This document shows positions 2,423-23,433 of a DNA stretch of 32,000 bases, piece after piece. The notes under the pieces are model-generated. The model was given only the letters and a program-made list of their open reading frames with translations. It did not search any database and was not told the origin of the DNA. The stretch's first letter is position 1. The number at the start of each line of letters is the position of its first letter. The position numbers were made by a program, and so were the translations under genes. Origin of the DNA: Flavobacteriaceae bacterium (lineage in GTDB: Bacteria > Bacteroidota > Bacteroidia > Flavobacteriales > Flavobacteriaceae); NCBI GenBank assembly GCA_965224465.1, contig OZ245049.1, positions 3,750,001 to 3,782,000 on the forward strand, given 5' to 3'.

Positions 2423-5392
2423 ATGGCAGAGGTTGTAGAAGAAAAAAAAACAGGACAATATAATGGTATTCTGTATGAGTGTAGTTTTACGGCAGAGGGT
2501 AAAGGAGTTACCTGTGTAGAGCAGCCTGTACTTAAAGTGGTTAAACCAGGTGTGCGAATAAATTTGATGCGTATAGCCTTGATAAATAGAACACCTAAGT
2601 TTACGCCTTTAATGCTAGAGGGGGTTGGGAAAGATGAATTTATGCCATTGGAGACCCCAAAAGGTGCTCCAGACGTAGAAGGGTTAAGCAACTATGTATA
2701 TGCAAGTACAAGCTTAAGACCCGGGTTTTTATATGTAATCAACGAGAGTGATTCAGATGGTTGGAGTGAATGGGAAGTAGGATTAGGAGGGTGGCTTAAA
2801 GAGATAGATAAATCGCAAGCAGAAAGTGATTTTAGAAAAGTCACATCAGATGCTGTAGTAATTGATCAGTATGTTGCAGAACCTACAGATGTTTTGTGGT
2901 TTGCGTACTCAGAAATACAATGGAGTGCAGATTATTTTAAAAGCATGCGTGATGATAGTTCTAAACGGGGCACTCGTATGCAAAAATATGACTTAATTAA
3001 ACATGTTAATAATGAGTCTCAAAACGATGCAGCATCTTGGGATATAATGAAAAATAATTTTCTGATTATCCCCGAAAATAAATTGGATTATAATGTTACA
3101 CAACAAAATTATACAATAGCTTCTTTTGATGAAACCAATAATACCGAAAGTTATAAACTGGATGCTATCCTATGTCTACATGATCCAGTAGGGATATTTA
3201 TAGAACATTTTTGTTATCTAAAATACCTATGGAATAAGATGGATTATTTAATGATTTCATTAAAAATAGGGAAAGAAGTTAGCGATATAGAAAGAGCTTT
3301 GGCAAAAGGTCAAGATCCAAGATTATTACAAAACGCTGAAAAACTTGAGCAAATAGATGCGCTTTACAATATTGCTGTTAATATACGTGCTGTTGCTTTT
3401 TCAGATCAAGAAAGTATAGATAAAATAGGTGATAATATTGATGCAAAAAGGTTAAACAAAGTATTAGCTACTGAAGAACGATTGCTAATTAAAAATAAAA
3501 TTGTCAAAAGTAAAATGGTTTTTGCAAAATTTATTGAAAGTGATTATTTTAAAAGAATAAAGCAAGATTATTTTGAGAACACTCCTAATGTAATAATGGA
3601 AGGAAAATTTTTATTTGCTAGTTTAATGGTTGATTTGTGGAAACCTGCAAATTTTAAAGACAGTTTTTTAGAAACCGTTGACGAGAGTGCACAATGGAAT
3701 GCCAGTACAAAAGAAGGAAAAGAGTTTATTATAAAAGTATTAAATCGTAAAAATTTCTTAGGAAAATTATTTAATACCGTTACACTCTTAGAGGATGTTG
3801 AGGAAAATTCAAACAACCTAAAACTTATAAAGATTATCGATGCACTGTTTGATGTGGCAAAAGGGGTTGCTGAAGAGGGTGATGAAGTACTGAAACTGTG
3901 GGTTGCTATGATGAATAGTACTCGCTTAAAAATAAACGGGAAGGTGGTAGTAGCAACTTTTGAGCTTACTACAATGGCTAAAGAGTATAGGAAATCTTAT
4001 GTTGGGCGCTCCGACTTTGTGAAAAACACATTAAACATCAATAAAAAATCCTATAAAAAATTCAAAAAAGCAACAAATGAACTGAGTGAAGGGTTTATGG
4101 AACTTATGGAGTCCAAACAAATTAAGCTTACTGCTAGTTTTGAAAAAGCGATAAAAAGTGAAACTTTAAATGGCATGAAGAATTTTCAAGCTAGCTACTT
4201 CTGGAGGAAATTAATGCGTAGTCTTAGTTTTGTTAATCTTGCCTTGGCAACAGCTGCTCTTAGAAAGTCAGATAGTAAATTTCAAAAACTTTTAAATATA
4301 AGTAAATTTTTAACCGCTATTTCCGAGGTAAATGTACAGGTACGTAATGTAAAAGCAATGCGACTGGTTGGAGATGAATTAGAAGTTTTTAAAATAGCTA
4401 CAGAGAAGTTGTCAATTAGAGTGATGTATGCGGGAGCTGTGATTGATATAGCCGAAGCAGGGCTTAATTTTTGGGAACGCGATTACGATGCGGCTTCCGC
4501 GTATGCAGGAGCGGCGGTCACAGGATTATTGGCAGCTTTAATATTAGGGGGTACAATAAATATATGGAATCCAATAGGATGGGGATGTCTTATATTAGGA
4601 GCTTTGCTTGGTTTTTATGCAGCTTATTTGGAAGACTCCCCTTTAGAGCGTTTTGCTAAAAACGGAGTATTTGGTAGCATTCCTTCTAAGTATATATTTT
4701 GGAAAACTGTTGATTTTGATGAGAATAATGGTTATTTAAAGTATATAGAGGAGCATGTAAAAGAAACAACTAGAGTTGCTTTACATAAAACAGGCTTTGG
4801 TGATTGGGCAGACTATCCTACGCAATACAAGGATTTTATGAATATTTTAATAGGAGGTAGAATACATATTAAAATAAATAAAAATGATGAAGTAGAGATA
4901 GGCGAAACAATGAAAGCGGGTTCGTATGCCGATAAATCGAAAGTCATATTAAAAACATTTCTAATAAAAAAAATACAAGTGACTGCCTTTTTTGGTAGCT
5001 ATTTAACAGATAAAGAAGCATTAGAATATCATGTTTTTTACTTGCCTCAAGGTTTTGGAAAGGAAGCAGAAGAGGTAACTACTTTTTTATGCCAAAGTAA
5101 TATTACCATAAGTACTCTCAAAAGCCAAGTGCCAAAAGCACATTGGTCTATTGATTTAGAGTATCTTTATGATGTTAATAAATATTCTCAGATTATTATT
5201 ATGTGTCGTTTAAATATAAATAACAATCAATTTTTTCCAATTCCAAAAAAAACAATTCCACGTTATATTGCGGTAACAATACCTGTGATTCGAAATGATT
5301 CGCAGTCAGGATTTGTTTATAGAGATGGTCTCAATGATCGTGTTTATGTTGGGACACAACAAGAATTACTAAATAAAAAAATATGGAAATAG
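2423..5392 (+). CDS. Large T6SS effector, VasX-like N-region plus glycine-rich TM helices (putative membrane-disrupting toxin)
   Basis: 989 aa, starting 5 nt after the PAAR stop. N-region motifs are shared with 19189..22542: KPGVRINLMRIAL, LRPGFLYVINE, WSEWEV, LWFAYSEIQWS, LCLHDPVG. These resemble the VasX N-terminal / BTH_I2691-type effector pattern (PvRYal, lRxGwlYv, vqWs, lxDPxG). Hydrophobic Gly-rich helices lie at about 4430-4635 (AYAGAAVTGLLAALILGG...GWGCLILGALLGFYAAYL). Confidence 0.6.
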   Translation: MAEVVEEKKTGQYNGILYECSFTAEGKGVTCVEQPVLKVVKPGVRINLMRIALINRTPKFTPLMLEGVGKDEFMPLETPKGAPDVEGLSNYVYASTSLRPGFLYVINESDSDGWSEWEVGLGGWLKEIDKSQAESDFRKVTSDAVVIDQYVAEPTDVLWFAYSEIQWSADYFKSMRDDSSKRGTRMQKYDLIKHVNNESQNDAASWDIMKNNFLIIPENKLDYNVTQQNYTIASFDETNNTESYKLDAILCLHDPVGIFIEHFCYLKYLWNKMDYLMISLKIGKEVSDIERALAKGQDPRLLQNAEKLEQIDALYNIAVNIRAVAFSDQESIDKIGDNIDAKRLNKVLATEERLLIKNKIVKSKMVFAKFIESDYFKRIKQDYFENTPNVIMEGKFLFASLMVDLWKPANFKDSFLETVDESAQWNASTKEGKEFIIKVLNRKNFLGKLFNTVTLLEDVEENSNNLKLIKIIDALFDVAKGVAEEGDEVLKLWVAMMNSTRLKINGKVVVATFELTTMAKEYRKSYVGRSDFVKNTLNINKKSYKKFKKATNELSEGFMELMESKQIKLTASFEKAIKSETLNGMKNFQASYFWRKLMRSLSFVNLALATAALRKSDSKFQKLLNISKFLTAISEVNVQVRNVKAMRLVGDELEVFKIATEKLSIRVMYAGAVIDIAEAGLNFWERDYDAASAYAGAAVTGLLAALILGGTINIWNPIGWGCLILGALLGFYAAYLEDSPLERFAKNGVFGSIPSKYIFWKTVDFDENNGYLKYIEEHVKETTRVALHKTGFGDWADYPTQYKDFMNILIGGRIHIKINKNDEVEIGETMKAGSYADKSKVILKTFLIKKIQVTAFFGSYLTDKEALEYHVFYLPQGFGKEAEEVTTFLCQSNITISTLKSQVPKAHWSIDLEYLYDVNKYSQIIIMCRLNINNNQFFPIPKKTIPRYIAVTIPVIRNDSQSGFVYRDGLNDRVYVGTQQELLNKKIWK

Positions 5393-6252
5393 ATTTAGAA
5401 TACCAACATGCACAAAAATTTAAGAGTAAATACTTACGGCCTTTGCCTTTTGTAATTCGTACAGATTCACTTCAAATTGATATTAAAACCAAACAGAATA
5501 AAAAATTATACCCTATTTTTAATAACAATTGTATCAAACGATTTATTCCTTCAAATAAGAATATTTCAAAAATGGATATTTATATGCATATAGGTATTTG
5601 TTCCTTTTTTTGGATACTAATACCTATAATTGAACTTATAGATAATGGAGGTATTGATATGATCGTTTTTGCTTTTATAATTCCTTTAGGATTGCCTTTT
5701 CCTTTTATGGCTTATAGGTCTTTTAAACAATATAACATAGCTCCTGAACAAACTTTTGTTACTTTTGATCGGCTTAATAGCTTATTAACAATGCCTACAT
5801 CAGATGAACAAAGTTATTTTACCATACCTTTTTCACATTTAATCGCGGGAGAGGCTGTAACAGGAACCAAACATACTTATGGAGGTAAGTTTTTAGCTTT
5901 TATAAATGATACCAAACCTGTAATGTTCCGGCCATGGAGACCAGACGATTATATATCTTTAAATTATGCAGCTACTACCCCAAAAGAGATATGGTCATAT
6001 TACGTTTGGTATATGGATAAAAACCGTCCCTTACCTGAGTGTGAAGCTTTTGATGAGTTTAGAGAAAAAGATTTTGAGCGTCGTAAATTAGCAGGGTTTC
6101 CGCCACCGTTATTTAAGAGTAGGGTTCCAACCCCAGAGGCAAGCCTGGAACAACAATTACTACGTGAAACTTTTTGGAAAGACGAAGATTATATGGCTAC
6201 AAAAAACGAAGCTTTTCACAGTATATTTTTTAAAAGACCAAAAGAGAAATAG
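5383..6252 (+). CDS. Putative 2-TM membrane immunity protein (WYMDKNRPLP family)
   Basis: The ATG overlaps the effector stop (ATGGAAATAG). Two hydrophobic helices (GICSFFWILIPII, MIVFAFIIPLGLPFPFMAY). The C-terminal motif YVWYMDKNRPLPECEAFDEFREKDFERRKLAGFPPPLF is shared with 11926.., 13585.. and 22536... Confidence 0.6.
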   Translation: MEIDLEYQHAQKFKSKYLRPLPFVIRTDSLQIDIKTKQNKKLYPIFNNNCIKRFIPSNKNISKMDIYMHIGICSFFWILIPIIELIDNGGIDMIVFAFIIPLGLPFPFMAYRSFKQYNIAPEQTFVTFDRLNSLLTMPTSDEQSYFTIPFSHLIAGEAVTGTKHTYGGKFLAFINDTKPVMFRPWRPDDYISLNYAATTPKEIWSYYVWYMDKNRPLPECEAFDEFREKDFERRKLAGFPPPLFKSRVPTPEASLEQQLLRETFWKDEDYMATKNEAFHSIFFKRPKEK

Positions 6253-6308
6253 AGTGCTGTTTTTAAGTTGAATTCTAACAACTAAAAATCCTGTTAGCAC
6301 AAATCTAC

Positions 6309-6403
6309 AAGCAATGCATTCGCGCGGATTTTAAATCCGCGCCAGTAACTGATTGTCTGCTAAGAATGTTTCGCGGAAAGGTTTACGGAAAAAGGTGATT
6401 TAT
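6309..6403 (+). repeat. Conserved 95-nt junction element, copy 1 (21-nt palindrome 6322-6342, stop-TTG start, first 17 codons)
   Basis: aagcaatgcattcGCGCGGATTTtAAATCCGCGCcagtaacTGAtTGtctgct...aaaaaggtgatttat recurs at 14382-14476 and 23339-23433. It always follows a membrane-immunity gene. Confidence 0.85.
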
Positions 6404-6910
6404 GCATCATTAGAAAATACAGATGATGTTTTTGAGTTTTTAAGTAATGAAAAAAAAGATGGAAAAGAAGAACAATATTTTACAAATATTAAAGCAGGAA
6501 CAAAATTAAAAACAAGCCTATCTTACAAAGTAGACATTAAAGCAAATACACCCATAAAAGTACTTAAAATTAAAGGAGATTATGCACAAATAAAAGTAAC
6601 ATCTATTACTGCAACCTTAGTTAGAGATACCGATATTAATGATAACGTAAAACCATTTAATAGCAATAAACTTTATACTATCAAAAATCTTACTACGGTT
6701 AATAAAGCATTTAATGGTCTTGCAACTAAAGATGCCACATTCAATACAAAACAAGTAAAAGCACCAAGAAATTGGAGAACAAATTTAAACAGAACTGTTA
6801 CCTTTTACCCAAATGGCTATGGTAAAGTGATTTGGATAGAAAAAACATCTATTTCCAAAATAGCAGAAAAAATAAAAAAAATTAGATATAATTACCTCAA
6901 TTATTCCTGA
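6353..6910 (+). CDS. N-terminal ORF piece of the frameshifted PG effector
   Basis: 185 aa, near-identical to residues 1-176 of 23383..26361. The TTG start directly follows an in-frame TGA. The tail IRYNYLNYS is out-of-frame read-through. Confidence 0.6.
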
Positions 6911-7415
6911 CTATTTTTTAACAGATAAACAAAAATACGAAACAGTTGAAAGAGAAGCCAAAACAGGAGAAAAAACTACATTATATGTAGATGTATGTAA
7001 GGCATATATCGAAGTCCCTTTTAGAACCGATGTAGAAGAAGTAACTGTAGAAAAAGAAAAAGTAGTTGACTTACGTAAATTTAAAAAAGCAAAAGACGAT
7101 AAAAAAGACCTTTGGTATAAAGTAGTATTAGATGATACAACTAGTAGCCAATGTGTAGCAGTAAAAGGCTGGGTAAAAGAAAAGGATCTTGACAAATTTA
7201 GCGCTTACGATTGGCAAAAATTTGGTTTTAAAGATCTAGACGCAGGTAATGAATACATATACTCTGTAAAAGACTTACGTGAGGCAACAGATAGTGCCGA
7301 TTTTGTAACCGAAATTTGGGATAAAACAATAGATACAGATGGCAATAAAGTATTAGATATACTAGAGCTTATTAGAGCGTTTAGTAAACCAGAAATAGCA
7401 CAAAAACTATCTCGT

Positions 7416-9302
7416 TTGGTATGTAAGCACAAAAATGAATGGTCTTATACTATGGACGAAATAAAACCAGAAGTAAAAGAACGCTGTGATTTTGGTATAC
7501 AATTAGAAGAAGTTACAGCCGAAAAACAAAAACTAGAAACCCAAAGGGATGATAGTTTAGCCAAAATGGAAGCCAAAATAGAAAATTTAATGTGGTGGGA
7601 TGAGGCAAGTAAAAAAACCTACACAGCACCCGTAAAAGAAGAAGATAAAACAAAAACGAGTAGCACCAAAAGACCTTCTATGTTGCCAGAAGGTACAGTG
7701 GTAGAAGAAATACCACAAAAAGTTGTTGTACCTTTAGACAATAAAACAACAGCAGCTAAACCAGATGCTAAACCAACGGAAGATAGTATACCAACGACAA
7801 GTACAACCGCTGCTCCAGCACCAGAAACTAAAGTAGAAGAAAAAGAAGTGCCGCCAAAACGTATGTTTCCTAAAAGCAATATAGTACATCACTTTCATCC
7901 AATTGCTTGGGTGGAGCAGATGAAACGAATGTATGGAGATTGTAAAGTTTTGAAAAAAGGAGATAAAAACGAATTAGTTAGAGAAATAAATATCCGTTTA
8001 GCAGGTTTTGGAGGAAATGTACCAACTGACGAGTTTACACAACGTACCGTAGATATGGTTAAACAATTTCAAAAAGACTATATGAAAGTGGAGCAAACGG
8101 GTGTGGTATGTGGTAAAATGTTTAAAGCTATTGATGAGTTTGATGAAAAATATATTATTCCTTTTAATAAAATTAAATGTAGATGTGGTGGATGTACTGG
8201 TTTTGGCAAAGGGAAATTTACTTCTCAAAAACAAAAGGGAAATATTAAAGAACTGTACAGGAAATATGAGTACCCAGGTATTCATAAAACATTGTTATGG
8301 ACATTAAAATCAACTATGTTTTATCTCGCAAACAATGATAAATCACATAAATTAAAATTCGGTAAAATTTCCTCTGGATACAGATGTCATATAGATAACA
8401 CACAACATAATAGAAGTTCAACTAATCATATGGGGAAAGCTTTAGATGTGCATTTTTATAAAAATAATGCTACTTCATCTTCTGAAAAAAACTGCGATAT
8501 TGTAAGAGATAAAATTCTAATAAATAGATCTGGAGCTCAATTAAGATGGGGAAACAGTAATAAAATCTCTTTAGAACCTAGTGAGAAAGACAGAATTGGT
8601 AGTGAATTTATTGCAACAACATGGGTTCATTATGATGTTAGAGAGTTTGATTTAGAATTTTTAGATGACAAGTTCTTTATAAAAAAACTAGATGATAGTC
8701 TCGAAAATAAAATTCAAAATTTAGCAAAAAAAGAAGGGTACGATACTGAATGTAATTGTAATTCTAATGGAGATAATAATTCAACCCAAGATGAAAGAAT
8801 TGATCCTGAAATTTTAAAAACAAGTGAAAAAGGAATCCAATTTATTAAAGATTGGGAAAGTTTCAAGAGTGAAGCATATAATGACTCTAAAGATTATTGT
8901 ACAATAGGTTATGGACACTTAATTGCCTATGAAAAATGCGAAAACATTACTTTATCTGAAGATTTTAAAAATGGAATTACTAAAGAAAAAGCAACCGAAT
9001 TGTTTAAAGAACGTCTTGTCGAATTTGAAAAATCTATTCAAAAAGACATAACGGTTAACCTTTATCAATATGAATTTGATGCTTTAGTAAGTTTAGTATT
9101 CAATACAGGTAAAGCTTTTTTAAGGACAAAAGGAGCTGGTGGTGGAGATACCAAAATTAAAAAGAATATTAATGCTAAAAAATATACAGAAGGAGCTGAC
9201 GAATTTGGAGATGTTACTAATGGAGGAACTTCCGGTTTAGTTAAAAGAAGAAATGCAGAAATTAATATGTTTAAAAATGATATTTATGATTCAATACATT
9301 AA
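7416..9302 (+). CDS. C-terminal ORF piece of the frameshifted PG effector; could be translated from ATG 7452 like the orphan modules
   Basis: Coiled-coil, PT-rich linker and [12 protein letters not shown], followed by three domains. PG_binding_1-like: [22 protein letters not shown]...VKQFQKDY. M15-like zinc peptidase: CRCGGC...SGYRCHIDN...[13 protein letters not shown]...WVHYDV. GH24 phage lysozyme: [26 protein letters not shown]...[12 protein letters not shown]...[13 protein letters not shown]. Confidence 0.8.
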
Positions 9303-10488: not shown

Positions 10489-10659
10489 TCACGAACTGCT
10501 TCCGTTTTTATGTAAATCCAACGTTATTTGATCTTCAAATTTAATATATAATTGTTGAATTGTCAAGTACCAATTATGTAAAGGGTTTGTCCATTTTTTT
10601 TCGATATTTTTTGTTGCTAAGTAAACAATCTTCAATAGTGCCATATCACTGGTAAAAGG
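10489..10659 (-). mobile_element. IS256-family transposase C-terminal fragment (56 codons plus stop)
   Basis: The minus-strand translation is PFTSDMALLKIVYLATKNIEKKWTNPLHNWYLTIQQLYIKFEDQITLDLHKNGSSS*. This matches the conserved C-terminal block of IS256/Mutator-type transposases (..LLKLxYLAxxNIxKKWTxPIxNW..F..FEDR). The fragment is truncated at 10659 by the IS66-type end. Confidence 0.6.
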
Positions 10660-10857
10660 TATCCGTCCGACGAAGTACGTATAGGAATTAATAATACATA
10701 AAAAAACCTCGATTTTATTGATCGAGGTTTAAATTTTGTGGAAATAGCTCATTTAATTTTAGCGCATTGTAATCAGGAATTATATCCAGTACTTTTTTCA
10801 GCCATTTATAGGGGTTTACTTGGTGTTTTTTACAAGTCCCAAAAAAGGAATAGAACA
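10659..10857 (-). mobile_element. Truncated IS66-family element end, copy 1 (terminal ~199 bp only)
   Basis: About 95% identical to 10858-11055. It begins with the same terminus GTATCCGTCCGACGAAG and contains the last codons and stop hairpin of the transposase. Confidence 0.65.
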
Positions 10858-11434
10858 GTATCCGTCCGACGAAGCACGTATAGGAATTAAAAATACATAA
10901 AAAAACCTCGATTTATTGATCGAGGTTTAAATTTTGTGGAAATAGCTCACTTAATTTTTGAGCATTGTAATCAGGGATTATATCCAGTATTTTTTTCATC
11001 CATTTATAGGGGTTTACTTGGTGTTTTTTACAAGTCCCAAAAAAGGAATAGAACATCGCTGCATTTTTTGCAGCATCATGGCTACCTGCAAATAAATAAT
11101 TTTTACGTCCAATAGCTAATGTTCTGATAGATCCTTCTACTAGGTTATTATCTAGTTCTAAAGTACCGTCATACAGGTAGGCTTTTAAGTAGTCCCATCG
11201 TTTTAATGTATAAGTAATTGCTTTTCCTAGTGGACTTTTCGGTAAGCTTCCTTGGGTATTATGGATCAACCATTTTATAAATGTATCCATTATTGGTTGT
11301 GCTTTATCTAGGCGATAAGCATGCCGTTGCTCAGGAGTAAATTCCTGGTTTTTACAATGTCGTTCTATCCAAATTGGAGGTAATGATAGAGCTGGTGCTA
11401 CCTTTACTTCTGCCAATATTACAAGAGTAACCAT
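10858..11434 (-). mobile_element. Truncated IS66-family element end, copy 2, with transposase C-terminal ORF 10913..11434
   Basis: The 173-aa ORF carries the IS66 transposase C-terminal signature LELDNNLVEGSIRTLAIGRKNYLFAGSHDAAKNAAMFYSFFGTCKKHQVNPYKWM. The N-terminal two-thirds, including the DDE core, are missing. Its terminus abuts an internal point of copy 1. Confidence 0.8.
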
Positions 11435-11921
11435 CCAAACCTCATTCCGTCAATTTTTATGGTATGAAGATCAATATGAATATCAGTCTTTTATAGTAGA
11501 CACACGTACAGGTGCTTATGAAGAAATTCCTTTTGAAGAATTAAGAGGGGAAGTTAATATTGTAAAAGAAGAAGGTAGTATTCCTAGAACCGAAACAAGC
11601 ATACGTATACCTGAATGGGTACATGAGAAAAGGAAAAAACATGAATATAGGTTTACTGTTTTTCAACTAGTATTTGTATGTAGATTGCTACTAAATGAAC
11701 AACATAAAAAATATTATCCACATACTTATGTAGGCAAAGATCGCTATATGGGTATAAAAATGCAATTATCACAATCTAGAACTCATAATTTTAAAAACAT
11801 GAATGGATTACTATTCCCTCCGAAACCAACCGAGTTTAAAGGGTATTATCATAAAAATGTAGAGGTAGATACTCTAGATAAACTATTAAAATGGGCTAAA
11901 GAACCCGTATTAAATATATAA
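11433..11921 (+). pseudogene. 3' remnant of a third VasX-like effector gene, truncated by the IS66 fragment
   Basis: The frame of ORF 11685..11921 is open back to the IS boundary, with no start codon before TTG 11685. The tail LVFVCRLLLNEQHKKYYPHTYVGKDRYMGIKMQL parallels IIIMCRLNINNNQFFPIPKKTIPRYIAVTIPV (island-A effector) and MVLAIRVRINKEKNHYFPYRLLDKPERYIGAKFKL (island-B effector). Confidence 0.6.
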
Positions 11922-11925
11922 GTCT

Positions 11926-12621
11926 ATGGCAAAAATTAAAAAGCGTTTTGGTAAATGGGGAGGTTATTTGCCACATTGTATTGATGGACGACCTACAATA
12001 GATATAAAAAAAGAAGAAATGGATGGAGAATATTATATTAAAGCTAATGATGAGTTTTTTATAATGAATAATGATTTATTTGGTAATATATATCTATATA
12101 TAGGGTTAGCCCTTTATTTCTTTATGTTATTAACAATAGCAATAAGACTTTCTGCAGATAAAGATGTTGGTTTTATTTTTTTATTTTTTTTATTTTCTTT
12201 TGGAACATTATCTATCATATATAATTATACAGCTCCAGTAAAAAAGATTATTTTAGATAGACTCAATGGGATCGTTACTTTTCCCAACTTTTTATGGGGC
12301 AAACCTATTTGCATGCCTTTTAAAGATATGTTGGTAGCATGGTCAGTAAAAAATTCAGGAATCAACCCTTCAGGACCTTCGCTTTCTGCTTTTCATCCCA
12401 ACGGTTTTTTTAGCACCGATATTATGGGGGCAGATGTGTTGGAAGATTGGTATTTTATAGTATGGTATATGGATAAAAACCGTCCTTTACCTCCGGGTAC
12501 TGCTTTTGATGAATATCGTGAGAAAGATTATCTGCGAAGAAAATCTGAAGGCTTTCCAGAAGGGTTATATCCTTGTAGTATTCATATTCCAGAATACAAG
12601 CCTTCAAAAAAAAGAAAGTAA
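11926..12621 (+). CDS. Putative 2-TM membrane immunity protein (WYMDKNRPLP family), orphaned
   Basis: Starts 4 nt after the effector remnant. Two TM helices. Shared motifs: RLNGIVTFPNFLWGKPICMPF and IVWYMDKNRPLPPGTAFDEYREKDYLRRKSEGFPEGLYPC. Confidence 0.6.
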   Translation: MAKIKKRFGKWGGYLPHCIDGRPTIDIKKEEMDGEYYIKANDEFFIMNNDLFGNIYLYIGLALYFFMLLTIAIRLSADKDVGFIFLFFLFSFGTLSIIYNYTAPVKKIILDRLNGIVTFPNFLWGKPICMPFKDMLVAWSVKNSGINPSGPSLSAFHPNGFFSTDIMGADVLEDWYFIVWYMDKNRPLPPGTAFDEYREKDYLRRKSEGFPEGLYPCSIHIPEYKPSKKRK

Positions 12622-12685
12622 AAAACAAAGAATTGTAACTCTTATTAATTAGAAAATAATATGATAACTATTAAGAATTGTTAGT

Positions 12686-13591
12686 GTCTTTAATAAACGG
12701 GATGTTGACGCCAGTGTTGCTTGGAAGTTGGCAGGCGTTGCTTTTACAGTAAGTACTGCGGCAGGTATTTGGGGAGGAACTATTTTTTTATTATCAGGGC
12801 CTGTAGGTTGGATTGCCTTAGGAATTGGTTTAATAGGAGTGGTTTCAGCAAATATTTTTATAGACACAGACTTGGAATTCTATTTTAAACACTTTTTATT
12901 ATCCGATCATAAAAAATTACCTATTGGTAATAACAGTCCTATGGCATACAACCGTCTTGTCTATAAAAGTATTGAGACTTTAGTAGAGAGTGAGGATGAA
13001 GACATTAAAAATAGCCTAATGTATCCTGAGGATGCTATTGCTAGTTTACACGATCTTACGGTATGTACCAGCATTAATTACTATGTAGAAAACATGAAAA
13101 TGAAATTTGCAGGCAGACGTGGTAGAAGTACGGGTTATTATGTAAGTAGTTTTGGTATTACTATGAATTTTAATCATTTTTTATACGATGTAAATCAATT
13201 AGAAGTAAAAGGTATGATAGTGCGTCATACCTGGGTTAATAGTATTGGAAGTAATGCCGAAGAATTTAATTTAATATTAAAAGATGCCAAAATAGTAAGC
13301 CTGAAAAACGGACAACAACAACTTTTAGTAATTGTAGCAATACCTTACGAAAAAAGAAAATTAATAAAAGACGATAAAGATTTAGAAATGGTACTAGCCA
13401 TACGTGTAAGAATTAATAAAGAGAAAAACCATTACTTTCCTTATAGACTACTAGACAAACCTGAACGCTATATTGGTGCTAAATTTAAGTTATATAAAAA
13501 CATATACACTAATTCAGGGGAAAATAATACAGATAATCAAAATTTAGTTTTTGATACCTTAGCGAACTTAAAACTTGATAAAACATGGTAG
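12686..13591 (+). pseudogene. Orphan 3' fragment (last ~300 codons) of the island-B membrane effector
   Basis: 12688-13591 aligns to 21639-22542 at constant offset 8951 with few substitutions. The frame opens only at 12668, and no ATG occurs before codon ~70 (the track start 12728 is TTG). It begins inside the TM region (FNKRDVDAS..AGVAFTVSTAAGIWGG). Confidence 0.7.
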
Positions 13592-14367
13592 ATGCGACTT
13601 TTAATTACAAACGCCCTATAACCCATACCCAATACAAACATGGAGATAAAGAAACCAAAAAAGGAGGATTTAGCAGAATGCTGACCATGCGCATAACAGA
13701 TGATATGCATGTTATGAAAAAAAGTGATGTAGGTACTAAAGGGGGCTTTCCTTTTGCTACAGATGTTTTTTTAAAATGCCCTGTTGTTCCTAAGATAATG
13801 CCATTATGGTTGGGTAGCCTATTTTTATTTTTATTTTTATCGGGTATTTTAATTATGTTGAGACCTAGTCAGCTTAAAATTGAATTGCCAGTAATTATTA
13901 TGACGATAGTGTTTTTTCTAGGATTTTTGTTTTTTGCAACCTATTATTTTACGATGCCAACAAAAGAGCTTATTTTTAATAGAGCGGACGGTTTGGTTAC
14001 TTTTCCTGGGTTTATGTGGTGTAAAAACATAACAATGCCTATACATAAAATGATGTTTTCTATGTCATCGCCTAGTACGCAAGGAGGAGGCGCTTATATG
14101 TTGCAAATTGTACGACCAGACAGGACGTATTCTTTGTATTTATGTACAAGGGGCTATAGTTGTTATGAAGATTTATCATCTTATTTATGGTATATGGATA
14201 AGAACAGACCATTACCTACGGGGGAAGGTTTTGATCCGTGTCGTTTACAAGATTATGAACGTAGAAAATCTGAGGGTTTCCCTAAGCCATTATTTCCTTG
14301 TAGTTTTGAAACTCCAGAAGCTACGCTTGAACAACAGGCAGAACGTGAGCGTATTGGCGGTTGGTAA
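13585..14367 (+). CDS. Putative 2-TM membrane immunity protein, near-duplicate of 22536..23324
   Basis: The ATG overlaps the upstream stop (ATGGTAG). It is almost identical to the island-B copy except for a replaced patch at 13840-13917. It carries the YLWYMDKNRPLPTGEGFDPCRLQDYERRKSEGFPKPLFPC motif. Confidence 0.7.
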   Translation: MVDATFNYKRPITHTQYKHGDKETKKGGFSRMLTMRITDDMHVMKKSDVGTKGGFPFATDVFLKCPVVPKIMPLWLGSLFLFLFLSGILIMLRPSQLKIELPVIIMTIVFFLGFLFFATYYFTMPTKELIFNRADGLVTFPGFMWCKNITMPIHKMMFSMSSPSTQGGGAYMLQIVRPDRTYSLYLCTRGYSCYEDLSSYLWYMDKNRPLPTGEGFDPCRLQDYERRKSEGFPKPLFPCSFETPEATLEQQAERERIGGW

Positions 14368-14381
14368 AAGTTGATAGCGCA

Positions 14382-14476
14382 AAGCAATGCATTCGCGCGG
14401 ATTTAAAATCCGCGCCAGTAACTGAGTGTCTGCTAGGAATGTTTTGCGGAAAGGTTTACGGAAAAAGGTGATTTAT
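14382..14476 (+). repeat. Conserved 95-nt junction element, copy 2 (palindrome 14395-14415)
   Basis: Same element as 6309-6403 and 23339-23433. Here it is followed by different coding sequence. Confidence 0.85.
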
Positions 14477-14725
14477 ACATTAAGAGAAAATAGTGAAGAA
14501 GAAGATTTAATACCAAAAGTTTTAGACTACTACCTAACGGACCTTAATCGAAACAAAATAGATAAAACAAAAATAGGTGAGAAAGTTTTTTTGAATATTA
14601 AAACCAAAAAATTAATTGGCGAATTGCTATCTATTTCTTTGAATGATAAAAAGGCTGATTTTAAATATAAAAATGAAAGACGACCAAATGATACTATTAA
14701 CCTGTCTCGAATTTTTTGGAAATAA
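14426..14725 (+). CDS. Small ORF starting with the PG-effector leader ([17 protein letters not shown]), then divergent; possibly a decayed effector N-terminus
   Basis: The GTG start follows an in-frame TGA, as in the other junction copies. The first 17 codons are conserved, with only weak similarity afterwards (RENSEEED vs LENTDDVF). It overlaps the next ORF in another frame. Confidence 0.35.
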   Translation: MSARNVLRKGLRKKVIYTLRENSEEEDLIPKVLDYYLTDLNRNKIDKTKIGEKVFLNIKTKKLIGELLSISLNDKKADFKYKNERRPNDTINLSRIFWK

Positions 14726-15107: not shown

Positions 15108-15494
15108 ATGTCTTTTAAAGCAAAATTAAAAGTAGGTGGACAAGAGTACAATGTATTGTCTTGTTCTTATGAATTACATCAAGAAACTGATGCAACTGGA
15201 AGACCATCTTCTATCACTAGAGGTGGGAAAATTAGATTAACGGTTGAGTCTACAGCAGACACAAGTTTGTCTGATTGGATGTTTAATAACTTTGAGCGTA
15301 GAGACGGTTCTATTGTTTTCTTAAAAAGAGATACCGAAGCTACTGCAAAGGAATTAAAGTTTTCTGAAGGTTATATGGTGAAATATCTAGAGAATTTTGA
15401 TTCTACAGGTAAAAATCCAATGTCAGAGTCATTTATCATTTCAGCAAAATCTGTTGCAATGGGGAATGGTGAACATGTAAATGATTGGGTGTAA
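15108..15494 (+). CDS. hcp: Hcp/TssD tube protein (Bacteroidota type)
   Basis: 128 aa with the typical short Bacteroidota TssD layout: MSFKAKLKVGGQEYNVLSCSYELHQETDATGRPSS..RGGKIRLTVEST.DTSL.DWM. It lies upstream of vgrG. Confidence 0.8.
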   Translation: MSFKAKLKVGGQEYNVLSCSYELHQETDATGRPSSITRGGKIRLTVESTADTSLSDWMFNNFERRDGSIVFLKRDTEATAKELKFSEGYMVKYLENFDSTGKNPMSESFIISAKSVAMGNGEHVNDWV

Positions 15495-15934
15495 TACCAA
15501 TTACAATCCAAAATGACCGATATAAATAGTTTATTTTACGTACTAGCGTTGTTAAAAAATAGAACGATAGCTAAGGCTATCCTTAGATTTTCCGCCTAGC
15601 TATACTACCAATTACAATCCAAAATGACCGATATAAATAGTTTATTTTACGTACTAGCGTTGTTAAAAAATAGAACGATAGCTAAGGCTATCCTTAGATT
15701 TTCCGCCTAGCTATACTACCAATTAAAATCCAAAATGACCTATATAAATAGTTTATTTTACGTACTAGCGTTGTTAAAAAATAGAACGATAGCTAAGGCT
15801 ATCCTTAGATTTTTCGCCTAGCTATACTACCAATTAAAATCCAAAATGACCTATATAAATAGTTTATTTTACGTACTAGCGTTGTTAAAAAATAGAACGA
15901 TAGCTAAGGCTATCCTTAGATTTTTCGCCTAGCT
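15492..15934 (+). repeat. Tandem repeat, 4 x 111 bp (last unit truncated by ~4 nt)
   Basis: Units start at 15496, 15607, 15718 and 15829. Units 1 and 2 are identical, units 3 and 4 are identical, and the two pairs differ at 3 positions. The array starts at the hcp stop codon. Each unit carries a stem: atagcta(a)ggc, a 16-nt loop, gcctagctat. Confidence 0.9.
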
Positions 15935-16036
15935 AGAACAAAAAATAATTCTATTTCTAAACCGTCACTTGGAAATCTAATTGGTAGAACATAAAATAAT
16001 TCTATTTCTAAACCGTCTATTGGAAATGCATTTGGT
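15935..16036 (+). repeat. Tandem repeat, 2 x 51 bp
   Basis: agaacaaaaaataattctatttctaaaccgtcacttggaaatctaattggt is followed by agaacataaaataattctatttctaaaccgtctattggaaatgcatttggt. The taattggtag in unit 1 is the reverse complement of the ctaccaatta that opens units 2-4 of the 111-bp array (unit 1 opens ataccaatta). Confidence 0.85.
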
Positions 16037-16151: not shown

Positions 16152-16547
16152 ATGTCGTTTTTATCACAATTAACAATAGCCGATGATACCATGAATGTAT
16201 TGCGATGTTCTTTTAACTTTGAACAAGGTGCAGATGCTGCTGGTAAACCATCACAAAGACCAAGTGGAGGGAAACTCATAATTTTAATTGAATCTACCAG
16301 TAAAACAGATTTTTTGGAATGGATGATCTCTCCCAATATGACCAAAAATGGAGAAGTTGTTTTTTATAAAAGAGATAATATGTCTAGTTTAAAAACCATT
16401 ACTTTTAAAAATGCCTATTGTTTGAGCTATCAAGAAGATTTTGATGCAGAAGGAAACCAACCTTTAAAAACACGGATTGTTGTGTCTGCAAAAGAAATTA
16501 CAGTAAAGAATACTACCTTTTCCAATAACTGGTTTGATAGAGAATAA
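16152..16547 (+). CDS. hcp: Hcp/TssD paralogue
   Basis: 131 aa, collinear with 15108..15494 at roughly one-third identity. Shared pattern: MSF....L......NVL.CS......DA.G.PS....GGK....ES...T....WM. It ends 85 nt before the vgrG start. Confidence 0.75.
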   Translation: MSFLSQLTIADDTMNVLRCSFNFEQGADAAGKPSQRPSGGKLIILIESTSKTDFLEWMISPNMTKNGEVVFYKRDNMSSLKTITFKNAYCLSYQEDFDAEGNQPLKTRIVVSAKEITVKNTTFSNNWFDRE

Positions 16548-16632: not shown

Positions 16633-18447
16633 ATGGCGCTACAAAGCAACACAACTATAATTATTAAGAGACAAGAATTTTCAAGTTTTCAAAGCCTTAA
16701 CTTACATCAGGAAATTGATGCATCCCATTTGTTAACACTTACGTTTAGAATGGACACACTTGAAGATCTAGAAGAAGAACTTGCAACCAACAGTAAAGAG
16801 TTTTTAGGGGAAACAATTTCCTTGCAAACGATTCCTGCAAATGGTTTTGAAGACCGTTATGGCGAATTGACGTTTAAAGGTATTATTACCGAAATAAAAA
16901 TCATAAAAGGGCATGAGGTAAGTGATGGTGATAAAGTAGTTATAGAGGCAAAAAGCCCCGATTTTTTAACAAATGATGGTCCGCATTTTGCGTCTTACAA
17001 CGATGTTTCCCTCTCAGAAATTATTGATAGTTCGTTTGAAGGCTATGATACTTCAAAATTAGAAGTAGACATACGCCCTCAAAACAACCCTAGTTTGCAT
17101 TATTCGGTACAGCATAACGAAAGTGCTTTTACGTATGTAAGTAGACTTGCAGCACAATACGGAGAGTGGTTCTATTACGATGGCGCGAAATTAGTATTTG
17201 GAATGCCTGGTACCGAAGACTTAGAACTCACCTATGGATTTGATTTAGTAGAGTATCAGATAGGTTTGATACCTCAATCCAACAATTACAAAATATTTGC
17301 AAATGATTATTTAACCGATGAGGTACAAGAAAAATCAACAAGCGAAACCAATGCCGGTTTAAGAGGTTTTGGAGGCTTTGTTTCTGAAAAATCAAATGCC
17401 ATTTACAGAAAAGAAACAAAAATTTGGCACAATCTTTACAGCGATACAGAAGTACAACAGCGTTTAGATACAGCAGTGGAATTACAGAAAAAAGCGATTG
17501 ATGTAAAACAAGTAAAAGTACAGGGTGTTTGTGATAATCCAGGAGTAAAAATTGGGAGCGTAGTTGTAATAGATGGGAATAGATACAGAATTATAGAGGT
17601 TACACATAGCAATAATGAAATTGGCGATTATACAAATAAATTTGAAGGAATCACCGCAGATATAAACGCATATCCATACACCAATATAAACGCATTTCCA
17701 AAAAGCGAAACACAGGTAGCCACCGTAAAAGAAAATGCAGATCCCGATGGATTGGGGCGCATAAGAGTGCAATTTCCATGGCAAGTGGAGTATAGCGAGT
17801 TAACCCCATGGGTGCGCATTGTAACGCCACATGGCGGAGCCAATAAAGGATTCCATTTTATACCAGAAATTGACGAAGAGGTATTGGTGGGCTTTGAAGG
17901 GGGGAATGCAGAACATCCTTATATATTGGGGAGTTTGTACACGGGAAATGCCAAACCCGAAGCGTTTAAAACCGACACCAACGATGTTAAAATTATAAGA
18001 ACCCGCAGCGGACACACCATTGAACTAAATGATAAAGATGGTGAAGAAAAAATAAATATCTACGATAACGAAGGAAGTATCATCACTTTTGATACCCAAG
18101 CAAAATCCTTGTATATACAAGCTACGGAGAATATTGAATTCCAAGCAAAGAATATTAAATTAAAAGCGAGCGAGAATATAGAACTAAACGCCGATCAAGA
18201 AATTAAAATAGCAGCAACGGGTAACGCATTATTAGCATCAGAGGCAGTTATTAACATACAAGCAGAAAGTGATGTTAACGTAAGTGCGAGTTCAAATATA
18301 ACCATAGAAGCCACTAGTAAAGCAAATTTTAAAGGACAAAGTATTATTGTAGAAGGGCAAACATCAGCTGAATTTAATAGTGCCCAAACCAAAATTACGG
18401 GTAGTGGAATGATTGATGTTTCAGGAGGAATGATAAAAATAAATTAA
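16633..18447 (+). CDS. vgrG: VgrG (TssI) T6SS spike protein, complete
   Basis: 604 aa with the same OB-fold signature and C-terminal beta-helix repeats as 2..1708. Confidence 0.92.
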   Translation: MALQSNTTIIIKRQEFSSFQSLNLHQEIDASHLLTLTFRMDTLEDLEEELATNSKEFLGETISLQTIPANGFEDRYGELTFKGIITEIKIIKGHEVSDGDKVVIEAKSPDFLTNDGPHFASYNDVSLSEIIDSSFEGYDTSKLEVDIRPQNNPSLHYSVQHNESAFTYVSRLAAQYGEWFYYDGAKLVFGMPGTEDLELTYGFDLVEYQIGLIPQSNNYKIFANDYLTDEVQEKSTSETNAGLRGFGGFVSEKSNAIYRKETKIWHNLYSDTEVQQRLDTAVELQKKAIDVKQVKVQGVCDNPGVKIGSVVVIDGNRYRIIEVTHSNNEIGDYTNKFEGITADINAYPYTNINAFPKSETQVATVKENADPDGLGRIRVQFPWQVEYSELTPWVRIVTPHGGANKGFHFIPEIDEEVLVGFEGGNAEHPYILGSLYTGNAKPEAFKTDTNDVKIIRTRSGHTIELNDKDGEEKINIYDNEGSIITFDTQAKSLYIQATENIEFQAKNIKLKASENIELNADQEIKIAATGNALLASEAVINIQAESDVNVSASSNITIEATSKANFKGQSIIVEGQTSAEFNSAQTKITGSGMIDVSGGMIKIN

Positions 18448-18463
18448 AACAAATAAATAAATT

Positions 18464-19177
18464 ATGCCAGGACCAGCAGCAACAATATCACACATGCACA
18501 CATGCCCTATGTATAGTGGAACAAGCCCACATACTGGCGGCCCCATTATAGGCCCGGGAGTGCCAACAGTTTTAATAGGAGGAAAACCTGCCGCAGTAAT
18601 GGGGGATCAATGTACCTGTTCGGGACCACCCGATGTAATTGTAGAAGGTGTTTCTACCGTATTAATTGGTGGGAGACCCGCAGCTACTATGGGATCAAAA
18701 ACAGGTCATGGAGGCGAAGTAAGCATTGGAAATACTACCGTACTTATTGGTACAAGATGTAGTGCTCCTACCGCAATAATGCCAGTAAGCAAAATACCTT
18801 TTCCTAAAATATCTTTTAAAGATCGTATACTAACTTCTTTGTCGGGGAATTCATTGGCAGAAGCAGAAGCGAATCAAGCTGCTTTGAGAGAAGAAGAGGA
18901 AGGTGAGCCTGAAATATATGGTGTACAGTGGATTATAGGAGAACAAACAGTAAGAGAATCTCATGTGTTTTCTGAAGTAACTGTAAGGGCTAGGGTAAGA
19001 AATATTAATGATGGTGAAAAAATTACTTTTTCTATTAAAAAACCTCTTAGCACAACGGATAATAATGGAGTTAGTACTACTTCCGAAGAAGATATTATTG
19101 AGTTATCAGGTACAGTACAAGACAAAATAGTAGAGGTAACTTGGGAAATTGAAAAATCACAGGAAGAATCTAAATAA
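18464..19177 (+). CDS. PAAR-domain spike-tip protein with variable C-terminal extension
   Basis: PAAR motifs as in 1725..2417. Identity with that copy ends at 18910. The C-terminal ~88 aa are divergent. Confidence 0.9.
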   Translation: MPGPAATISHMHTCPMYSGTSPHTGGPIIGPGVPTVLIGGKPAAVMGDQCTCSGPPDVIVEGVSTVLIGGRPAATMGSKTGHGGEVSIGNTTVLIGTRCSAPTAIMPVSKIPFPKISFKDRILTSLSGNSLAEAEANQAALREEEEGEPEIYGVQWIIGEQTVRESHVFSEVTVRARVRNINDGEKITFSIKKPLSTTDNNGVSTTSEEDIIELSGTVQDKIVEVTWEIEKSQEESK

Positions 19178-19188
19178 AATAGCAGATA

Positions 19189-22100
19189 ATGGTTACGGAA
19201 GAAGTAATAAAATACCAAGAGGAAGGAGCAAAATTAGTTGATAGTAAATACACCGTAGTTGTATCAGGTTCAGGCGTGGTGAATGAAGAAAGACCAGTAT
19301 TTAAAGCATTATTACCAGGTATTAGATTGCATTTTCTTAGATATGGTTTGTTTGATAGAAACAAGGATAACGTAAGTTCGATTCGTATTAAAGATGATAC
19401 GGACGAAAAATACACAGCATCAGATACTGATGTGTCCAATGGCGACCTACAAACCACCAAAGACTTTAGAGTAATGGCTACGCTACTTAAGAAAGGATAT
19501 GTATATATTATTAATGCGGAAAATAAAAATGACTATCATGAATTAAAAGTTGGTGAATTTGGAATGCTTTACCCTATAATTTGGAATACTAAAAATTTAG
19601 AAAGTGATGGTAGAACCCCTAAAGACTTTAGAGAGATTAATGGTGAAAAATCACATTACAAACTCATTTCTAAAACAAAAAAAGAAGGTGGTAAAAAATA
19701 TTGGATAGGCTACAGCCCTGTGCAATGGTCGTACGAATTACATAAAAAAATGCTCGCTGCATCTGATGAAGATAAAAAGCAGAAGCACATGATTTTAGTA
19801 GAATGTAAAGGTATAAAAAAAGGAGAGGAAGAAGCCAATGAATATATTTTACCTTACAATAAAATAAATATAGCCTTTTATGAAGGCGAAGACACAGATA
19901 GTTTAGTAAGAAAAACGTTAAATCAAATATTTGCCACTGAAAAAAAAGAAGAAAAACGTGGTAATAATGAGCTTCTTGAAGATATGTTTATTACTCTGCA
20001 TGATCCTGTAGGCTGCCTTCATGATGTTGGAGGTGTTTTAAGTGAAAAAACTGTAGAGTTTAGAGCTTTGGTAGAAGCTATTCAATCTGGAGAAACAGAG
20101 ATTGAAGCCAGAAGAAGATATGCCAAAACTCCTCCTGAATTTGCTCCTAACCCTAGTGATAATTACAAAAACATGTTCTCACTGGCTCTGGCTAGCTATA
20201 AAATGGTGTATAGTAGTAAAGAAAATACTCAAAAATTTGATGGTGCTGAGGTAGGGTATAATTTAACAAAACGTAATCAAACTAATTTTCCATATCAACC
20301 AAATTCTAGCGCTTCGTATGAGTTTACTATTAATTCTTTCTCAAAAAGTGATTATGGAGTGATAATTAAAAAAAAAACTAATAATTACGTAGCTAATGAG
20401 CATATTGGTAGTGGGTTGCACCGTTTAAAAGTAGAGGGAATATTAGGTGTGCACCCACGAAGAAAAAAGAGAGCCCAGTTAATTAAATATCGTGACATAG
20501 TAGGTGAATTTATACAATCAGACTATTTAAAGAAGGGATTGGCCTTTTATTCTGAAAATTGTTCTGCTTACAAAATTTTTGGTATTGAAGAATTGTATAA
20601 ATATATTTTACTTTTATATACAAATCCGTATGGTATTGACCGTCATTTACTTTTAAACAAAAAAAATGATCTTGAAAAAGACGTTTATTATAGCAGTGAC
20701 CAGTGGATTGATTGGATAAATAAACAAAAAAAATTAAAAACTCCAAACAATCCCAATGACCCTTTAGACGTCTTATTGGTTCACGAAATTTCTATTGGTC
20801 AAAAATTATTAAATAAAAAGGTAGAATTATCTAATAAATTAGCCGCTGTTTTTTCTGCGAAATTAACACTGCACTCATTAAGCGAGGATTTTTTTAAATC
20901 AAAAAAAATTACAAAGGCTATCACAGGAAAAACAAACTACCAAAAAATTATTAATGAAGGCTATACTGAAATGATAGACCAGCTAAATAAAATTACGGTA
21001 ATTACAAAAAAAGGAGGTATACCTGAAAAAGTGTTTAGTTTTGGCAATACTCACGCAATAGAAATAAATGCAAAAGTATTAGGTGTAGATTTTGATCCTA
21101 ATGTAGATGTTATTATAAGAGGTCCTGATGGGAAAAATATAAAAGAATTTACTACGGATTTAATAAAACACAATAAATTAAATGGAAATAAAGCCACTGT
21201 TGCTGGTGGTGCACATGTGTTAGAAGTTGGTGACAATGTAGAAAACATAAGCAAATATGAATATGTAAGAAATAAAATTAATAAAAACGGAGCCAAACGC
21301 TTTAATCAAAAAGCATATAATGCTTTAAATTCTCGTGGATTTACAGTTTTTTTAGCGGGTTTAGAAGTGATTAATTTTTACTATGCAACTTTGGGGCTGT
21401 ATGAATCAATACGAAAGGAGGAGTCAATACTAGTTAGAGCTAAAGAAGTTATTAACACGGCCGGAATTGGAGCCGAACTAGTAGAAGCTTCCTTCCGAGT
21501 ACAAAAAGCACATTATATTGCAATAGGTGAGGAGCTTGCAGAAAGTACAGCCAAAGGTCTATCAAATAAAATTGCAATAGCAGGTGCTATTGGTGGTATT
21601 ATTACTGCTGGTATGTGTATTACAGAAGCTGTTATAGCCTTTAATAAACGTGATGTTGATGCCAGTATTGCTTGGGGATTGGCAGGTGTTGCTTTTACAG
21701 TAAGTACTGCGGCAGGTATTTGGGGAGGAACTGTTTTTTTATTATCAGGGCCTGTAGGTTGGATTGCCTTAGGGATTGGTTTAATAGGAGTGGTTTTAGC
21801 AAATGTTTTTATAGACACAGACTTGGAATTCTATTTTAAACACTTTTTATTATCCGATCATAAAAAATTACCTATTGGTAATAACAGTCCTATGGCATAC
21901 AACCGTCTTGTCTATAAAAGTATTGAGACTTTAGTAGAGAGTGAGGATGACGACATTAAAAATAGCCTAATGTATCCTGAGGATGCTATTGCTAGTTTAC
22001 ACGATCTTACGGTATGTACCAGCATTAATTACTATGTAGAAAACATGAAAATGAAATTTGCAGGCAGACGTGGTAGAAGTACGGGGTATTATGTAAGTAG

Positions 22101-23324: not shown

Positions 23325-23338
23325 AAGTTGATAGCGCA

Positions 23339-23433
23339 AAGCAATGCATTCGCGCGGATTTAAAATCCGCGCCAGTAACTGAGTGTCTGCTAGGAATGTT
23401 TCGCGGAAAGGTTTACGGAAAAAGGTGATTTAT
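23339..23433 (+). repeat. Conserved 95-nt junction element, copy 3 (palindrome 23352-23372)
   Basis: Same element as 6309-6403 and 14382-14476. Confidence 0.85.

Follow-up and report, generated by a model that had tools for sequence, protein, structure and literature searches.

In a 32,000-nucleotide stretch of a Flavobacteriaceae genome (NCBI GenBank assembly GCA_965224465.1, contig OZ245049.1, positions 3,750,001 to 3,782,000 of the forward strand; hereafter the window), four genes, here called A to D, encode paralogs of a protein family that, judging from database matches, is large, unnamed and confined to Bacteroidota. We propose that its members are inner-membrane immunity proteins against pore formers of the VasX/Bte2 type, in which the tip of a transmembrane (TM) hairpin would set specificity and a constant C-terminal tail would act as a platform independent of the toxin. 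We place the probability of this overall reading at about 0.68; that A to D are immunity proteins of some kind appears very likely. Pore formers of the VasX/Bte2 type rank with the most widespread toxins of type VI secretion systems (T6SS), and to our knowledge next to nothing is known of the way in which their immunity proteins act. The family amounts to a natural dissection of this problem, as it comprises hundreds of homologs in which a tip of about 30 residues varies like a cassette while the rest can be near-identical, and in which the 55 residues of the tail hardly change from one order of Bacteroidota to another. The four genes, delimited from the list of open reading frames (ORFs) and by alignment, with hydropathy for A, B and D and AlphaFold2 (AF2) models for A and D, are as follows.

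Paralog A, 5383-6252, + strand: 289 amino acids, in the cognate position after effector 1; TM hairpin at about residues 59-119 (5557-5739), invariant block at 6001-6138
Paralog B, 11926-12621, + strand: 231 amino acids, an orphan after an effector remnant; TM hairpin at about 12088-12222, invariant block at 12457-12594
Paralog C, 13585-14367, + strand: 260 amino acids, an orphan in a duplicated cassette; hypervariable hairpin patch at 13819-13918, invariant block at 14182-14319
Paralog D, 22536-23324, + strand: 262 amino acids, in the cognate position after effector 2; TM hairpin at residues 71-125 (22746-22910), patch differing from C at residues 79-114 (22770-22877), invariant block at 23139-23276

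All four ORFs start where an earlier note on this DNA had placed them, on the + strand, and share the C-terminal motif that the note had described. Their alignment contains 36 invariant columns, including WYMDKNRPLP, F-D, R, D, R-R-K and G-F-P, and the invariant block extends over 46 residues without gaps, at coordinates close to the ranges given earlier. Outside this block, lineages A, B and C/D are only 12-30% identical. Each protein has two strongly hydrophobic helices separated by a loop of 4-15 residues, which agrees with the two TM helices proposed before. The description of a four-member family was right as to the number of paralogs in the window, but C and D lie within a recent duplication of 1.8 kb (12669-14492 and 21618-23449, 95% identity), so that the four represent three independent lineages (A, B and C/D) rather than four. 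Two further paralogs (P0004 and P0093) are encoded elsewhere in the same genome. The N-termini, which had been called unrelated, are divergent but can be aligned across the family (Y-K-R..T-H..Y and L/I columns), and in the AF2 models the N-terminal strand belongs to the same domain. The motif R(L/A)(N/D)G.VTFP, reported to follow the hairpin in all four, can be read clearly in B, C and D, whereas A retains it only in part.

The conservation of the C-terminal module is that of a protein sequence held by selection. Between lineages A, B and D, the proportion of differing synonymous sites (pS) in the block is 0.49-0.67 and that of nonsynonymous sites (pN) is 0.24-0.27, and the codons of the 10-residue core contain synonymous differences only, its residues being invariant. 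Because the synonymous sites are near saturation, the conservation reflects protein-level purifying selection and neither chance nor recent gene conversion. Recent duplication or gene conversion as a cause of the shared motif is thus rejected for A, B and C/D, and holds for C versus D. Among 149 family members from other genomes, the module has a mean identity of 63%, against 15-26% for the other regions. In an alignment of 99 sequences, the mean frequency of the most common residue is 0.84 at residues 204-240 and 0.74 over the tail, with 0.48 in the β region and 0.35-0.38 in the N-terminus and the TM helices. The invariant residues are R135, W204, M206, N209, R210, P211, P213, R222, D225, R229, K230 and F234 (numbering of D), and of the charged or polar residues of the tail about 13 are invariant or nearly so.

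The family extends well beyond the window. A profile search of 5.8 billion proteins returned 145 matches, all annotated as hypothetical, in Tenacibaculum, Aquimarina, Olleya, Flavivirga, Labilibaculum and similar genera. A HMMER search of 1.84 billion representatives clustered at 50% identity gave 564 matches at E ≤ 1e-3, 253 of them at E ≤ 1e-30, and the hairpin and the module are kept in all of the best 150 of these 564. Scanning one genome per species, we confirmed 182 stretches in 73 loci, essentially all of them in Bacteroidota (Flavobacteriaceae, Marinilabiliales/Bacteroidales, Fulvivirga, Capnocytophaga and Tannerellaceae). The sole locus outside this phylum lies in an alphaproteobacterial metagenome-assembled genome labelled Emcibacteraceae (L037, JADGEY010000171.1), on a contig of 2.6 kb, so that contamination during binning is more probable than true horizontal spread. 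Neither A to D nor the 99 family members belong to a Pfam family, scattered TM-noise matches being all that was found, with no bPH match, and a sequence-profile search of the PDB returned nothing under E 0.5. A literature search found no description of the family in Flavobacteriia, Tenacibaculum or Aquimarina. As far as we have found, the frozen C-terminal tail and the cassette-like hypervariable hairpin tip are undescribed features. The signature MDKNRPLP / FERRKxxGFP could be used to annotate cassettes of VasX-type effectors and their immunity genes, as well as orphan arrays, in marine Bacteroidota, including the Tenacibaculum fish pathogens, where these genes are now labelled "hypothetical".

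A typical member consists of an N-terminal segment of about 55-75 residues, a tight TM hairpin, a β-rich domain of about 70 residues capped by the W-Y-M helix, and a near-invariant C-terminal extension of about 55 residues (DKNRPLPPG-helix-FERRKxEGFPxPLF…TPEATPEQQ). The AF2 models of D (pLDDT 91.5, pTM 0.88) and A (pLDDT 89.8, pTM 0.86) predict with confidence a single domain with a hairpin. An N-terminal strand and two long TM helices are followed by a β region of six to seven strands, and a capping helix ending in WYM then leads through the DKNRPLPxG loop into a second helix (FD..R..DFERRK) and a C-terminal helix. Foldseek returned no match at E ≤ 1e-3 for either model against the PDB or for model D against BFVD, the best PDB matches being non-significant (E 0.078 for D and 0.087 for A). 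The remote-homology and structure prediction suggested by the earlier note therefore yielded confident models and sub-threshold profile matches, but no significant fold match. Some members depart from the common architecture. Among these variants (L030:2647-3792 and L066:547-1611; L071:5974-6990 and P0105), some begin with an extra segment of about 140 residues with CxxC…C motifs, resembling zinc ribbons, and others carry about 80 additional residues beyond the invariant tail.

The sub-threshold profile matches point to the experimentally validated Bfi2/Bti2 immunity proteins of the GA3 T6SS of Bacteroides fragilis. Of the 99 members, 37 match the NCBIfam profile NF053700 (bfi2_fam) at E ≤ 0.01, with a best E of 4.2e-9, and no other NCBIfam or Pfam family is matched by more than three of the 99. 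The scores are 14-35 bits (28 for D and 35 for P0069, the best), and the family (equivalog) cutoff of 350 bits is not reached. Nevertheless, the aligned ranges are colinear on the 294 positions of the profile, with residues 79-168 of D on 148-238, 82-211 of P0069 on 149-281 and 38-203 of L071 on 122-280, and five members map consistently, with profile positions 112-281 corresponding to the segment before the hairpin, the hairpin and the β domain. These alignments suggest remote homology over the TM hairpin and the β domain. The profile is matched up to about position 281 at the equivalent of WYMDK and ends some 13 positions later; judging from these coordinates, the invariant tail of about 45-55 residues appears to have no counterpart in Bfi2 and seems to have been either added or retained in this branch specifically. 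The family also has a shorter N-terminus, with about 70 residues before the first TM helix compared with some 147 profile positions in Bfi2.

In their genetic setting the two groups are alike. The bfi2/bti2 genes lie directly 3' of a Bacteroidota effector of the VasX/MIX type, are sometimes in tandem (bti2a,b) and also occur as orphans. Their partner Bte2/Bfe2 is a divergent VasX-family pore former that attacks the inner membrane from the periplasmic side and needs the Rnf complex of the target (PMC12718326). Dataset S3 of the same work (Ratner et al. 2025) lists Bte2 orthologs with an adjacent "immunity (bti2)" gene and no rnf in Aquimarina, Tenacibaculum, Cellulophaga and Zobellia, with the same scoring for Spongiivirga, Olleya and Capnocytophaga. 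At the level of presence or absence, an immunity role had thus already been predicted, and the features described here do not appear there. The suggestion that this is not a described immunity family therefore stands in so far as the proteins belong to no Pfam or NCBIfam family and no paper treats the motif, but has to be qualified by the remote Bfi2 relatives and by this earlier scoring of neighbouring genes. In the same dataset, Labilibaculum filiforme is scored as having no Bte2 immunity gene; its contig NZ_MVDD01000007.1 (L028) nevertheless encodes a truncated family member of 155 residues at 6043-6510, 356 nucleotides 3' of an ORF of 420 amino acids.

The genomic context speaks for immunity. 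In the window, A and D overlap the stops of intact VasX-type effector genes, and B and C stand behind effector remnants; that each of the four follows an effector or a remnant had been noted before from the letters alone. The effectors and remnants are the following.

Effector 1, 2423-5392, + strand: VasX/BTH_I2691-type T6SS effector of 989 amino acids (Pfam VasX_N, PF20249, E 3.6e-17; NCBIfam BTH_I2691_fam), with hydrophobic helices near residues 690-736 by hydropathy
Effector 2, 19189-22542, + strand: VasX/BTH_I2691-type T6SS effector of 1117 amino acids (matches to VasX_N, PF20249, and BTH_I2691_fam), with hydrophobic helices near residues 800-875 by hydropathy
Remnant 5' of C, 12728-13591, + strand: C-terminal 287 amino acids of effector 2, 97.6% identical to its residues 831-1117, within the duplicate (12669-14492) of 21618-23449
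Remnant 5' of B, 11361-11918, + strand: about the last 188 amino acids of a third VasX-type effector, found by tblastn, 58% identical to residues 897-1082 of the effector of locus L042

The stop of effector 1 and the start of A overlap by 10 nucleotides, and those of effector 2 and D by 7. The same arrangement recurs in the 73 loci, in which 175 ORFs bear the motif. The first gene of 39 arrays directly follows an ORF of 800 amino acids or more, typically with a 7-nucleotide overlap as in the window, and in the neighbourhood census that the earlier note had called for, all 39 of these upstream ORFs proved to be phmmer homologs of effector 2 (E 1e-17 to 1e-301). An effector or remnant is present in 48 of the 73 loci, a PAAR gene in 27 and a VgrG gene in 20. 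Tandem arrays of two to six paralogs are common (six in L069, five in L015 and in L063; also in L003), and lone orphan copies stand beside housekeeping genes or a transposase, in addition to the two orphans B and C of the window. The genes thus take the immediate, co-oriented position 3' of a VasX-type effector that is expected of T6SS immunity genes, and they also occur in arrays and without an intact cognate effector. In the latter respect they resemble the acquired interbacterial defence (AID) arrays of gut Bacteroidales, which hold immunity genes without cognate effectors (Ross et al. 2019, cited in PMC7604300), just as family members are found behind effector remnants. However, the arrays of this family consist of paralogs of a single family that directly follow the effector and differ mainly in one short patch. 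The recombinase-associated type of AID array differs further, as no integrase or recombinase was seen with the immunity genes, the mobile elements being an IS66 fragment in the window and one ISL3 transposase in L041.

A role other than immunity would be that of an accessory protein or chaperone that holds the hydrophobic effector in the producing cell before it is loaded onto VgrG and PAAR. The genes do lie where such a protein would be expected, always immediately 3' of the effector and with their translation coupled to that of the effector; the constant domain is cytoplasmic by prediction; and neither the list of ORFs nor the Pfam scans revealed a DUF4123/Tap-type adaptor between PAAR and effector in the window. 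Synteny, arrays and orphans together are, however, the classic signature of an immunity family and argue against a chaperone: arrays of up to six genes with hypervariable tips, copies that stand behind a truncated effector and copies on their own beside housekeeping genes are the mark of immunity genes and not of chaperones, and the remote homology to Bfi2 points the same way. We regard the chaperone explanation as very improbable. The designation of A to D as putative immunity proteins is well supported by their synteny with VasX-type effectors, the overlapping stops, the arrays and orphans, and the remote similarity to Bfi2/Bti2.

The variable part of the proteins is concentrated in the hairpin. 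C and D are identical at residues 1-78 and 95-99% identical after residue 115, but 47 of the 100 nucleotides at 13819-13918 differ between them. In this patch, pS is 0.36 and pN 0.45; in the flanks, pS is 0.08 and pN 0.013 or less. Since both values lie far above those of the flanks, the patch is an imported mosaic segment. The same pattern is seen in 30 pairs of near-identical paralogs within arrays, from 11 loci, in which positions 81-110, that is, the distal half of the first TM helix, the loop and the start of the second, differ at 68-78%. Positions 41-70 form a second variable zone, with 22-30% of differences, and beyond position 121 the value is at most 7%. The paralogs of L069 combine their hairpin segments and their N-terminal segments independently of each other, on a scaffold that is otherwise 96-100% identical.

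Comparison with the toxins was based on 34 effector-immunity pairs. The effector C-terminal third, which contains the hydrophobic helices (residues 800-875), correlates with the β domain at rho 0.58-0.78 and with the hairpin at 0.37-0.53, but with the C-terminal module at only 0.02-0.14; β-domain and hairpin identity does not track the N-terminal MIX region of the effector. The view of the earlier note that the module serves something other than toxin recognition is supported indirectly by this missing co-variation and by the placement of paralog variation at the hairpin tip. We consider it somewhat better than an even bet that the tip is the main determinant of specificity. The breakpoint of the 1.8-kb duplication lies near effector residue 811-831, a position that agrees with the co-variation data and with the idea that the C-terminal third of the toxin and the immunity gene travel as one exchangeable cassette. 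Directly 3' of A, C and D, at 6309-6419, 14382-14492 and 23339-23449, stands the conserved sequence of the 5' module of downstream genes described below, which could provide a recombination anchor for cassette exchange.

The topology of the proteins can be predicted from their charge distribution. Exactly two hydrophobic peaks are present in 131 of 149 members, with no evident signal peptide, and the two helices predict a location in the inner membrane. The mean number of K and R residues is 1.7 in the N-terminal flank, 3.5 in the C-terminal flank and 1.0 in the loop, and the flanks exceed the loop in 127 of the 131. This distribution predicts that both termini, the β domain and the tail are cytoplasmic, so that only the tip of the hairpin would reach the periplasmic side; the CxxC…C extensions of some variants also favour a cytoplasmic N-terminus. 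On this basis, a toxin that reaches the periplasm would insert its hydrophobic helices into the inner membrane and be met there, within the bilayer, by the outer-leaflet half and the loop of the hairpin. The hypervariable, cassette-like part of the hairpin would decide which toxin variant is neutralised, and the β domain with the invariant tail would form a cytoplasmic platform that does not depend on the toxin and may serve in orienting the hairpin, in oligomerisation, in contacting the inner leaflet through its basic cluster or in contacting a constant partner. The C-terminal third of the toxin and the immunity gene would be exchanged as a cassette, and additional copies would pile up as orphan immunity genes. 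As to the tail itself, inner-leaflet lipids, self-association, a constant toxin element exposed to the cytoplasm and a conserved host partner are all candidates, none of which is likely when taken singly.

The immunity proteins of pore-forming colicins (for example Cai and Cei) are integral inner-membrane proteins thought to recognise the hydrophobic helices of the toxin within the bilayer, just as we propose for the tip of the hairpin. Unlike the present family, they have three to four TM helices, no large cytoplasmic domain and no invariant soluble module, and their sequences are unrelated. TsiV2, the partner of VasX, and Tki5, that of Tke5, are also small proteins encoded beside a VasX-family toxin; however, no Pfam or NCBIfam match links them to the family, with which they were compared through family scans only.

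The constancy of the tail also allows a different explanation, in which it docks to a conserved cellular partner on which immunity depends. Such a partner could be the membrane complex that serves the toxin as receptor, which is Rnf in gut Bacteroidales and might be the homologous Na+-NQR in other bacteria, or else a protease of membrane quality control or the apparatus of the T6SS, and docking would place the hairpin where toxins insert or pass the captured toxin on for disposal. The extreme conservation of the module (0.84 over residues 204-240) under protein-level selection and its lack of co-variation with the toxin would fit this explanation, as would the predicted cytoplasmic position of the tail, which therefore cannot meet an incoming soluble toxin, and the fact that Bte2-type toxins exploit a conserved membrane complex (PMC12718326). 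However, no conserved neighbouring gene besides the effector is seen in the loci, no partner was found among them, and the presence of the module does not track Rnf, since Marinilabilia has both and the Flavobacteriaceae have the module without Rnf. That lone orphans keep the module is equally compatible with a scaffold. A related idea, that the tail compensates for a lack of Rnf, is weakened by the same distribution, as Marinilabilia salmonicolor has rnf together with module-bearing members and the Flavobacteriaceae that carry the family lack rnf. We therefore hold it unlikely that the tail, absent from the Bfi2 relatives of gut Bacteroides, is a docking module for a host component such as a receptor complex or membrane protease, with partner-dependent positioning or disposal. 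If true, it would mean an unrecognised two-part logic of immunity to pore formers, in which a swappable, membrane-embedded specificity tip is mounted on a constant adaptor.

Alternatively, the constant domain might itself bind a constant element of the toxin, for example an inter-helix loop exposed to the cytoplasm, and plug or cap the pore from inside, with the variable parts adding affinity. The most conserved 100-residue window of the toxins (residues 801-900, mean identity 0.38) does contain the hydrophobic helices, and the part of Tke5 that Tki5 neutralises is its α-helical, pore-forming region (PMC12909789). The top Foldseek match of model A, EROS/CYBC1 (8kei_D), likewise has a TM hairpin followed by a β-rich domain with a capping helix, and is a chaperone that clamps the TM helices and the cytosolic face of its partner. 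This match, however, is non-significant (E 0.087, TM-score 0.23/0.34, root-mean-square deviation 6.9 Å) and was not found with model D, which makes it an analogy and a lead only. In addition, Bfi2 appears, from where its profile ends, to protect against a VasX-type toxin without such a tail. Capping of the pore from inside is, in our estimation, a quite unlikely explanation, and a little more so than docking.

Several points weigh against the proposal of a specificity tip on a toxin-independent platform. Protection, topology and toxin contact are all inferred. The bfi2_fam scores are far under the cutoff of that family, and the link depends on profile matches and not on the Bti2 sequence. Both phylogeny and the low variance of the module confound the co-variation analysis. 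The hypervariability of the tip could result from weak constraint, in which any hydrophobic hairpin would do, combined with recombination, and not from selection for specificity; the pN/pS of the tip, about 1.25, is compatible with both. The tips of C and D differ behind toxin C-termini that are 97.6% identical, a pairing that a model based on the tip alone does not obviously predict. The remnant and effector 2 differ at seven amino acids, three of them within the hydrophobic helices, too few to test whether they vary together with the changed tip. Finally, with its roughly 13 invariant charged or polar residues, the tail resembles a surface for binding or some other function more than it does a passive scaffold.

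The window, part of a T6SS island of a marine member of the Bacteroidota, has a G+C content of about 31%. It contains two VgrG-PAAR-effector clusters, both on the + strand, and the following features belong to these clusters or lie between them.

VgrG gene, 11-1708, + strand: Pfam Phage_base_V/GPD; precedes the PAAR gene at 1725-2417
PAAR protein gene, 1725-2417, + strand: Pfam PAAR_motif; 5' of effector 1
IS66-family transposase fragment, 10913-11434, - strand: Pfam DDE_Tnp_IS66, E 1.3e-28
VgrG gene (16633-18447) and PAAR gene (18464-19177), 16633-19177, + strand: identified by Pfam; 5' of effector 2, duplicating 1-2299 at 96%

The two VgrG-PAAR modules are 96% identical in DNA sequence (1-2299 and 16740-19038), and the effectors that follow them are about 22% identical in their N-terminal region, which suggests a recent duplication of the delivery module with differing toxin cargo. 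The third effector, 5' of B, is truncated by the IS66 transposase fragment. A 198-bp unit present twice (95% match) at 10659-11055 overlaps the 3' part of this fragment and is probably debris of the insertion sequence end at the breakpoint that cut the effector. Upstream of the second VgrG gene, between the ORFs at 15108-15494 and 16152-16547, four copies of a 111-bp tandem repeat with 99% match occupy 15495-15935.

A further 5' module of about 550-1600 bp recurs at 6309-7923, 23339-24955, 27421-28015 and 30203-30779 with 95-98% nucleotide identity. It belongs to an ORF with a lysozyme domain (7416-9302), one with a CHAP domain (23383-26361), one with an M23 peptidase domain (27520-29160) and the ORF at 30229-31986, and the four genes appear to encode polymorphic effectors that degrade peptidoglycan and share their N-terminal domain. 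The first copy is split into an ORF of 185 amino acids (6353-6910) and the lysozyme ORF of 628 amino acids (7416-9302), which may mean a frameshift or pseudogene, or else fusion at another point; the paralogous gene at 23383-26361 is a single, uninterrupted ORF of 992 amino acids.

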